Positions 4,743 to 54,707 of a stretch of 64,000 nucleotides of DNA are shown one piece after another. The notes below the pieces were generated by a model. The model did not search any database and had not been told where the DNA came from. It saw only the letters and a list, made by a program, of their open reading frames with translations. Source of the stretch: Candidatus Bathyarchaeota archaeon (lineage in GTDB: Archaea; Thermoproteota; Bathyarchaeia; 40CM-2-53-6); assembly GCA_963833125.1 (NCBI GenBank), contig CAWHWX010000005.1:71506-135505 (forward strand). Reading direction: 5' to 3'. Numbering within the stretch: position 1 is the stretch's first letter; the number at the start of each line of letters is the position of its first letter. The translations under genes were made by a program, and so were the position numbers.

Positions 4743-4874
<132 letters not shown>

Positions 4875-47668: not shown

Positions 47669-47734
47669 AACAGACTCGGTCTTGAGCCTTAGACGAGAAA
47701 GCTAAATCGGACTATTATTACGGTTCTGGGTGAA

Positions 47735-47830
47735 GGTACCGGGGGAGCTGGGTGTCCCGGCTGAGAGGACGGCTAGAGCCGTCGACCCCGTTAACCTGAT
47801 CCGGGTAATGCCGGCGTAGGGAGTGTGCTA
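47735..47830 (+). ncRNA. TPP riboswitch (THI element)
   Basis: GGGGAGC...GCTGAGAGG...GACCC...AACCTGATCCGGGTAATGCCGGCGTAGGGAG, upstream of thiT. Confidence 0.95.
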
Positions 47831-47926
47831 ACAGCAAATGCGAAAATCTTGTGTTTTCGAACCAACGATAATCGACCTCACGATCCTCGGTGACCTTCAC
47901 ACAACTATCGGAGGTGAAGTTGACTA

Positions 47927-53497: not shown

Positions 53498-53597
53498 CTA
53501 GCCGCAATGAAGAGGTAAGAAAAGAAAAGCTGTTCGATTACTCCCGAGGGTTAGTCGGAAAGGTTGATATGAGCACAGGCTCGCACGGTGAAACGAT

Positions 53598-53736
53598 GGC
53601 CGCCGTAGCGTAGAGGAGACCACAATCTCCACGCAACTTGGTAGCGTATAGACCGCAAAACGGGTACAAGGCTGTGGACCCTACGGGGCGGGTTCAAAGC
53701 GCCTCTGGAAACGGCGTGAAAATCCCGCCGGCGGCC
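53598..53736 (+). tRNA. tRNA-His(GUG) with three BHB introns (53614-53636 at 15/16; 53652-53669 at 29/30; 53699-53722 at 59/60); encoded G-1
   Basis: Spliced product G GCCGCCG UA GCGU AGCUUGGUA GCGU A UAGGG CUGUGGA CCCUA CGGG GCGGG UUCAAAU CCCGC CGGCGGC C. Every intron forms hairpin + 3-nt bulge + 4-bp helix + 3-nt bulge. BRE/TATA-like GAAAGGTTGATATG lies ~27 nt upstream. Confidence 0.92.
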
Positions 53737-53737
53737 C

Positions 53738-54707
53738 TCAATTCTCATGTAATCTGTCAAGCACTCTCATTGCTGTCAAAGTGATCATCTTGCTTGGTTT
53801 TCCTGGTTGTTCAAGTGAGAATGGGGTAGGATTCTCTTTGGGATGTTTCAAGAACCATTCCGCCATTCCTCCCTCAACATCGGGGTGGATTGCATCAAGA
53901 TTCCACTTCCCATCACTTCGCCTCTTCTTTTTCAGCAACTTCACCGCGTAGCCGAGTCTTCTGTCGCTCCCGTATCCTAGAGCAGTCATGAAATCGAGGC
54001 CGACAAGCAAATCATAGTAGTAGTGCACGGGGTAGTGGAAACGGTACCAGGGTCGGTAGCGCACCCCCTGCTTATGCAGCTCCCGCTCAAGAAAGAATTC
54101 CGCACCGTGCTCGACACCTCGTTTGATGCTCCTCGTCCACTTCTGCTTAGGGTAGACCGCAAAGGCGCTCATAGGTTCCCAAGAATCTAGATTCCTACCA
54201 CTCCCAAAACAACTCCACCCGCCTTTCTTGCTCTGGTTCTTGAGGAGCCAGTCAAATGAGCGCTTAACTTTCGGGTGGTCAGCGTAGCCGAACTTAACAA
54301 GAGCTCTTGCTGTGTTTCCTACTGTGCAAAGGTGTCCCTTGCTCCACCTCTCAGAACCGAATCCGCCGTCCTTCTTAGCAAACCGCCTCATCCACAAATT
54401 ACAAGCCTTGCTAATCTGAGGGTTCGCCTTAGTGAGCCCTAGATCTGACAAGATGAGAAGCATCCAATTCGTCGACAGATATTTGGGTCTGTAGAGGCTT
54501 TCACCATCAACCCACCAACCTTCGGGATGTTGCTTGGCAAGAATCTCAGCCGCCCAACCCACGTTAGAAATCAGCTGTTTTCGCTGATTGAACTTCAGGA
54601 TCATTCTCAGGCTTTCCCAATAATTGTGTGAGTGCTAGGTACTTGATTGAGGGTTGATTTTCTTCCAACAGCCAGTTCAGAGTACTCAAGCGCAGGCTTT
54701 CATTCAC
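53738..54707 (-). CDS. prenyltranserase/squalene-cyclase-repeat (alpha/alpha barrel) protein; frameshift near 54570
   Basis: WLLE..PS..YL, Q...G.W, Y.PKY.ST.W, Q..KGGW.C, F.YP.HY.YD.L, KPSKMIT. Confidence 0.75.

Follow-up and report, generated by a model that had tools for sequence, protein, structure and literature searches.

A histidine tRNA gene with three predicted BHB introns at non-canonical positions in a Bathyarchaeia genome

Layout of the interrupted gene and its spliced product

The window, by which we mean the whole 64,000-nt stretch of DNA that was analysed, carries on its plus strand a 139-nt sequence (53598–53736) that reads as a pre-tRNA-His(GUG) gene, from G-1 through to C73. 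It occupies a 240-nt gap between two protein genes on the minus strand, one for a xylose-isomerase-like TIM barrel and the other for a protein with prenyltransferase/cyclase repeats. Two small ORFs overlap the tRNA locus, and neither has a match in Pfam.

The gene is divided into four exons by three introns, all on the plus strand. Sites are numbered by Sprinzl position, and cuts are placed between the second and third bases of each 3-nt bulge. Exon 1 (53598–53613, 16 nt) provides G-1, the 5′ strand of the acceptor stem, U8 and A9, the 5′ strand of the D stem, and A14 and G15. Intron 1 (53614–53636, 23 nt) follows in the D loop, at site 15/16. Its BHB motif has the central helix GCGT/ACGC, bulges AGA and AAC, and an intron helix of 5 bp, and is of the HBh′ type, without an exon-side outer helix. 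Exon 2 (53637–53651, 15 nt) runs from C16 to G29 and contributes the remaining D loop, the 3′ strand of the D stem, A26 and the initial 3 nt of the anticodon stem. Intron 2 (53652–53669, 18 nt) interrupts the anticodon stem at site 29/30; its motif, of the hBHBh′ type, consists of the central helix GTAT/GTAC, bulges AGA and AAG, a 3-bp intron helix and a 4-bp exon-side helix. Exon 3 (53670–53698, 29 nt) extends from G30 to A59 and contains the anticodon loop with GTG at 53674–53676, a 4-nt variable loop, the 5′ strand of the T stem and most of the T loop. Intron 3 (53699–53722, 24 nt) lies in the T loop at site 59/60, with central helix TTCA/TGAA, bulges AAG and AAT and an intron helix of 4 bp; the T stem itself serves as the exon-side helix, making this motif also hBHBh′. 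Cuts at 57/58, 58/59 and 59/60 give the same product here, within a run of A. Exon 4 (53723–53736, 14 nt) completes the gene with U60, the 3′ strands of the T stem and acceptor stem, and the discriminator C73. CCA is not encoded, and the 3′ trailer CTCA (53737–53740, plus strand) is kept in all 18 genes from the same genus.

In all three introns the central helix is paired at four of four positions and flanked by 3-nt bulges, as the BHB 3-4-3 rule describes. Outer helices of at least 2 bp are present on both sides in introns 2 and 3, while intron 1 has h′ only, which is the accepted HBh′ form. There is no intron at the canonical 37/38 site. The gene belongs with the multiple-intron tRNA genes, defined by at least two BHB introns at non-canonical positions in a colinear gene, as it has three. 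It is not a split or permuted tRNA gene, since its four exons are colinear on one strand within 139 nt. This is the layout proposed in the initial annotation, and every helix and bulge described there is present.

Splicing in silico gives a 74-nt product, which ARAGORN calls as tRNA-His(gtg), with G-1 paired to C73; the product was scored with ARAGORN alone. The GUG anticodon sits in a 7-nt loop on a 5-bp stem. The extra G-1 opposite the discriminator C73 is an identity element for HisRS. Both bases are encoded, as had been claimed, and none of the 16 distinct sequences departs from this pair.

The product was compared with six uninterrupted 74-nt tRNA-His genes from other orders of Bathyarchaeia. 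The alignment is gapless, with 63–65 of 74 bases identical, and most of the differences are compensated stem pairs. Closer relatives have natural intron-free alleles at individual sites: the D arm is uninterrupted in one genome of the same family, where it is identical to the predicted junction, the T loop is uninterrupted in one genome of the same genus, and the anticodon arm is contiguous (17 nt) in another. The predicted junctions are thus supported without recourse to the BHB motif.

The 4-nt variable loop, CGGG, had been described correctly but suspected of containing a base error. This suspicion is mistaken: all 75 products of 74 nt have a loop with GG at its end, and 74 of them, the six intron-free genes among these, have G:G at positions 15:48. 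Tertiary pairing of G15 with G48 is unusual; the G48 variable loop is a lineage trait and not an error.

Upstream of the gene is a box, GGAAAGGTTGATAT (53557–53570, plus strand), which ends 27 nt before G-1. It is kept in 18 of 18 genes from the same genus, while the sequence farther upstream diverges. It resembles an archaeal BRE/TATA element and is a putative promoter. With no mismatches allowed it occurs in this genome at the tRNA-His locus alone, and the idea that it is a general promoter of the genome was rejected on that ground.

Detection of interrupted tRNA genes in the genome

Standard tRNA searches do not report this gene. ARAGORN with default settings finds no tRNA in the 64-kb window. 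Run on the genome with introns allowed, it makes 35 calls, none of them His; several have implausible introns of 545–1870 nt, and this output was rejected as a gene list. The Rfam tRNA model (RF00005) gives 35 matches genome-wide at E ≤ 10, with none at the locus, and a permissive search of 261 nt with the same model left the locus unmatched in its unspliced form. This is expected for a gene carrying three inserts. The suggestion that annotation would under-call such genes therefore holds for the two finders used, ARAGORN and Rfam/Infernal. At gathering thresholds the only Rfam match in the window is a TPP riboswitch aptamer (47731–47840, plus strand; 74.2 bits against a gathering score of 54.3), here in an archaeal genome.

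A genome-wide search for non-canonical introns had been proposed, and was done with our own scan for BHB motifs coupled to ARAGORN. A strict motif required 4 bp in the central helix and 3 bp in the intron helix, no more than one G-U pair being allowed in either, and an intron of 12–130 nt. The genome contains 342,652 such motifs, a density of roughly one per 18 nt, with 10 starting inside 53590–53740. A lone BHB-like motif is therefore no evidence of an intron. The strict scan started from T-arm-like anchors, with BHB jumps limited to three before the T arm, one inside it and one beyond it, and every path was tested with ARAGORN. In the real genome, 143,775 paths yielded 96 solutions, which group into 37 clusters. 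The reversed, non-complemented genome, with a similar stock of 344,049 BHB candidates, gave no solutions from 94,992 paths. Combinations of BHB motifs that leave a tRNA are hence not produced by chance. The only His call of the strict scan, genome-wide, is the locus in the window. The shortest product was taken in each case, which leaves a messy table with products of 67–100 nt, and hence no exact count of introns per gene across the genome. A relaxed scan, accepting three of four central-helix pairs, was discarded: it yielded 2114 solutions at 118 loci in the real genome but still 68 at 29 loci in the reversed one, and the cloverleaf score failed to separate the two sets.

The wider claim, that this lineage has a tRNA set riddled with introns, is upheld by these scan results and by the Rfam matches. 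Outside one contig (C28), 14 of the 16 tRNA matches at E ≤ 0.001 are full-model matches that span 90–152 nt, and there is one uninterrupted gene of 73 nt. Solutions with at least two introns occur in the strict scan at loci called as Phe, Tyr, Lys, Glu and Gly, among others. The three tRNA genes that score highest genome-wide, all uninterrupted, are on contig C28, which lies outside the window; this contig has a GC content of 0.52, against about 0.49–0.50 elsewhere, and may belong to the 7% contamination. Near-identical two-intron solutions were found at C6:3380-3539, C18:125837-125996 and C29:4456-4616, which read as Gly(gcc) or as Val/Ile depending on the choice of splicing; the gene seems to be repeated on the three contigs.

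The window contains a second interrupted tRNA gene, for tRNA-Leu(UAG), at 4743–4874 on the plus strand, in which CCA is encoded. The best solution has two introns, at 4757–4783 (27 nt, with a 4/4 central helix and a 7-bp intron helix) and at 4802–4818 (17 nt, relaxed). It replaces a strict-scan solution with a single 60-nt intron, which left a mismatched acceptor stem. This gene is also missed by ARAGORN at default settings, and Rfam gives only a partial, sub-threshold match at 4795–4863.

No second tRNA-His was called by ARAGORN, Rfam or the BHB scan in this genome, which is 87.8% complete with 7% contamination. Another functional tRNA-His gene, combined with the lack of a spliced product, had been named as what would count against the proposed gene, and within these searches no such second gene appeared.

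Conservation and intron content among relatives

When the 139 nt were searched by BLAST in 40 relatives, full-length matches appeared in 16 genomes of the same genus (78–98% identity) and in one sister genus (70%). In the alignment of the 17 sequences the exons are almost invariant, exon 1 being unchanged in 16 of the 17 genes, and the intron loops are variable. The pairs of the mature cloverleaf are kept in 100% of 352 cells, in line with the perfect stems described earlier, and five of these pairs have changed on both sides. Among them are 49:65, 50:64 and 27:43, the last being CG in nine sequences and UA in seven, and spanning intron 2. Of 639 cells in the precursor structure, scored as acceptor stem, T stem and the three BHB motifs, 96.9% are paired, and 10 pairs show changes in both partners. 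None of 500 shuffles reached the observed value, although the aligned sequences are kin and such counts are not to be read as probabilities. When the partner was slid by 1–3 columns, pairing fell to 36–46% of cells. A weak point is the central helix of intron 1, whose first pair is unpaired in 8 of the 16 distinct sequences.

A 19-nt exact pattern, spanning exon 1 and intron 1, was found in 24 records of the genome collection, 16 of which are MAGs assigned to Bathyarchaeia or Bathyarchaeota. A complete interrupted gene of 114–157 nt is present in 18 of the 24. Three of the records (L055, L059 and L061) are MAGs labelled Acidiferrales, Methylomirabilota and Chloroflexota, yet hold a complete interrupted tRNA-His of archaeal type, 116–141 nt long, which suggests that these contigs are mis-binned or mislabelled. 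Records labelled Arthrobacter, Casimicrobiaceae and Alphaproteobacteria have the 19-mer alone. The locus is also covered by DNA contigs from public runs, which retain the introns; one of the runs may be the source sample. A single RNA run, examined in the same way, contributed no sequence at the locus.

The density of single BHB-like motifs, one per 18 nt or so, is what could lend credit to the idea that the gene is a chance resemblance, or else an artefact of assembly. To this we assign a negligible probability. The reversed genome gave no solutions, and the gene is present in many separate genomes and in the contigs of public runs; the explanation is refuted by the controls that were run.

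The locus might also be a decaying or silent copy, with the working tRNA-His encoded in the unassembled 12% or so of a genome that is 87.8% complete and 7% contaminated. This too is very improbable. Against it stand the nearly invariant exons, the stems that covary across 17 genomes and the conserved promoter-like box. The same gene is the match found in genomes of the genus that are 96–100% complete, and neither ARAGORN, Rfam nor the BHB scan makes a further His call. We consider it highly probable that the locus is a functional tRNA-His(GUG) gene, and the only one found in this genome; on the sequence evidence its function as a tRNA-His gene is almost certain.

The occurrence of introns in tRNA-His was then followed across the class. 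The 16-nt pattern of the 5′ exon is present in 92 of 301 sampled genomes of Bathyarchaeia, and the reversed pattern was found once. From the pattern-bearing genomes 86 complete genes were taken, to which were added six from genomes of the same genus matched by BLAST, making 92 in total. Genes cut by the end of a contig (G012, G180, G027) were dropped, as were the gene of G170, for which 420 nt contained no 3′ end, and those of G115 and G041, which lie too near a contig end; second matches in G296 and G180 were also left out. Inserts were located by a motif-free alignment to the predicted product, followed by a relaxed BHB search and confirmation with ARAGORN, and 91 of the 92 genes were resolved in this way. 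The sample is conditioned on the exon 1 pattern and its genomes are related, and the following counts are to be read accordingly.

Six of the 91 genes have no intron, 13 have one, 40 have two, 30 have three and two have four. Five sites recur: 15/16 (55 genes in 10 families), 59/60 (47 genes, 5 families), 34/35 (46 genes, 8 families), 29/30 (24 genes, 4 families) and 44/45 (9 genes, 5 families). Ten further intron calls, at six other positions, are regarded as uncertain. Introns at 29/30 and 34/35 do not occur together in any of the 91 genes. The combination of 15/16, 29/30 and 59/60 is found in 15 genes, all from the same genus as the window; the 18 genes of this genus comprise these 15, two that lack one intron and one with a fourth. 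One of the four-intron genes (L030:1501-1657, minus strand) has its BHB introns at 15/16, 29/30, 44/45 and 59/60. Another tRNA-His, of 189 nt (L109, in genome G036), also has four, at an uncertain D-arm site and at 34/35, 44/45 and 59/60.

Within one genus there are thus alleles with and without a given intron, with exact junctions. It is possible, and we propose it tentatively, that the tRNA-His genes of Bathyarchaeia form a natural series of gain and loss of BHB introns at five recurrent sites, with zero to four introns per gene. If true, with insertions that are frequent, recent and independent, deletions that are precise, and both constrained by the BHB motif, this would be a tractable system in which to follow the entry and exit of protein-spliced introns.

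Predicted processing and relation to known systems

The genome encodes the enzymes that such a precursor would need. Two genes match PF01974 (EndA fold; 84.1 and 52.3 bits), and RtcB is encoded once (574 bits). The EndA-fold genes are located in the regions of C34:61341-61595 and C14:18748-18987. The candidate EndA alpha subunit is a protein of 185 residues, whose best solved relative is the alpha subunit of Aeropyrum pernix (E = 7.8e-40), the alignment spanning residues 5–184. It contains motifs with Tyr, His and Lys, which we take to be the catalytic residues, and has K/K aligned to K44 and R46 of the Crenarchaea-specific loop (CSL). The second EndA-fold protein, of 190 residues, has no His at the place aligned to the catalytic His of M. 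jannaschii, and for this reason is read as a putative structural beta subunit. The genome is accordingly predicted to encode an alpha+beta EndA of crenarchaeal type.

The A. pernix enzyme is among the nearest known systems (alpha2-beta2; PDB 3P1Z, 3AJV). In the available excerpts of PMC3241643, loop residues K44 and R46 confer its broad substrate range, and in vitro cleavage of D-loop and relaxed introns is reported for EndA enzymes with the CSL. The predicted Bathyarchaeia pair shares with it the catalytic subunit, the loop region, where K/K aligns to K44/R46, and a separate gene for the second EndA-fold protein. It differs in that its beta-like protein is closer to the enzymes of M. kandleri and M. 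jannaschii than to the crenarchaeal beta subunit. This broad-specificity type of EndA has been linked to non-canonical and multiple introns (excerpts of PMC5829648 and PMC4033280).

From these components we infer the following pathway for transcription, cleavage, ligation and the order of splicing. Transcription, probably from the conserved BRE/TATA-like box, would produce a pre-tRNA of about 139 nt, in which the D arm, the anticodon stem and the T loop would each take part in a separate BHB motif. The three motifs could coexist, because they occupy non-overlapping parts of the precursor. An EndA of the heterotetrameric (alpha-beta)2 type would cut each motif inside both of its 3-nt bulges, and RtcB would join the four exons. 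The D stem, anticodon stem and T loop would form once the introns had been removed; the D and anticodon stems are expected only after introns 1 and 2 have left, as their strands are used in the BHB helices. RNase P would leave the encoded G-1 in place, and CCA would be added post-transcriptionally. The three BHB motifs together with the acceptor and T stems evaluate to −47.6 kcal/mol, and the minimum free energy fold of the precursor, which differs from this structure, to −59.2 kcal/mol. Given this joint structure and the separate positions of the motifs, a fixed order of splicing would not be required. Intron 1 is the predicted relaxed substrate, which would rely on a broad-specificity enzyme, since it has no exon-side helix and its first central pair is often unpaired.

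It may instead be that the gene is real and at least one of the inserts is processed otherwise, for example by cuts elsewhere, in an obligatory order or, for intron 1, by another enzyme. The HBh′ form of intron 1, with a central helix of 3/4 in half of the relatives, the three equivalent cuts at intron 3 (57/58, 58/59 and 59/60), and a minimum free energy fold that lacks all three BHB motifs together are each compatible with this. We nevertheless judge it very unlikely. In this genome all three motifs follow the 3-4-3 rule with a 4/4 central helix, they lie in non-overlapping parts of the precursor, and cutting of D-loop and relaxed introns in vitro by a CSL-bearing EndA is described in the excerpts of PMC3241643. 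Splicing of all three introns by the predicted EndA and RtcB remains the preferred reading.

Genes of this kind have been described before. Thermoproteales (Pyrobaculum, Thermofilum and others; Sugahara 2008 and Fujishima 2010, via excerpts of PMC8450103 and PMC4033280) likewise carry as many as three short BHB introns in a gene, placed at non-canonical positions; their (alpha-beta)2 EndA also has a specificity loop, and their tRNA genes are hard for finders. The present gene differs in coming from MAGs of uncultured peat and soil Bathyarchaeia and not from a hyperthermophilic crenarchaeon, and in its set of sites, 15/16, 29/30 and 59/60 without a canonical intron. With split and permuted tRNAs (Nanoarchaeum and Caldivirga; excerpts of PMC3218864) it has in common the processing of BHB motifs by EndA, but its own four exons follow one another in order on a single strand at one locus. 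The same excerpts of PMC8450103 and PMC4033280 state a maximum of three introns for archaeal tRNA genes, with Thermoproteales as the extreme; the Bathyarchaeia relatives with four introns in tRNA-His exceed this.

The initial annotation had placed triple-intron tRNAs mainly in Thermoproteales, which is too narrow. A 2026 preprint on Asgard archaea reports that genes of its focal families average more than two intervening sequences, with as many as five in a single gene. It also reports that D-arm introns are often missed by annotators, that the introns lie at BHB sites, and that gains have been repeated and lineage-specific. Asgard tRNAs resemble those described here in having many BHB-site introns per gene, and belong to a different phylum; neither Bathyarchaeia nor Thermoproteota is mentioned in that preprint. 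In the literature outside subscription journals and supplements we found no paper describing tRNA introns in Bathyarchaeia, and the terms co-occur there solely in a footnote of PMC7714728 and in an rRNA paper (PMC12918454). The three-intron layout is thus already known from other archaea, and knowledge of the mechanism is unchanged.

The decoding of His in this archaeon appears to need three splicing events in one gene of 139 nt. As ARAGORN and the Rfam model are both blind to the gene, annotations and completeness estimates for Bathyarchaeia may report as missing tRNAs that are in fact present. The heavy interruption of tRNA genes is extended to a lineage that is widespread in peat, soil and sediment, and the predicted presence there of a crenarchaeal-type, broad-specificity EndA fits the idea that this type of enzyme permits introns to spread. 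The gene is useful mainly for annotation and for studies of intron turnover, for which the mosaic of tRNA-His genes across the class offers comparative material.
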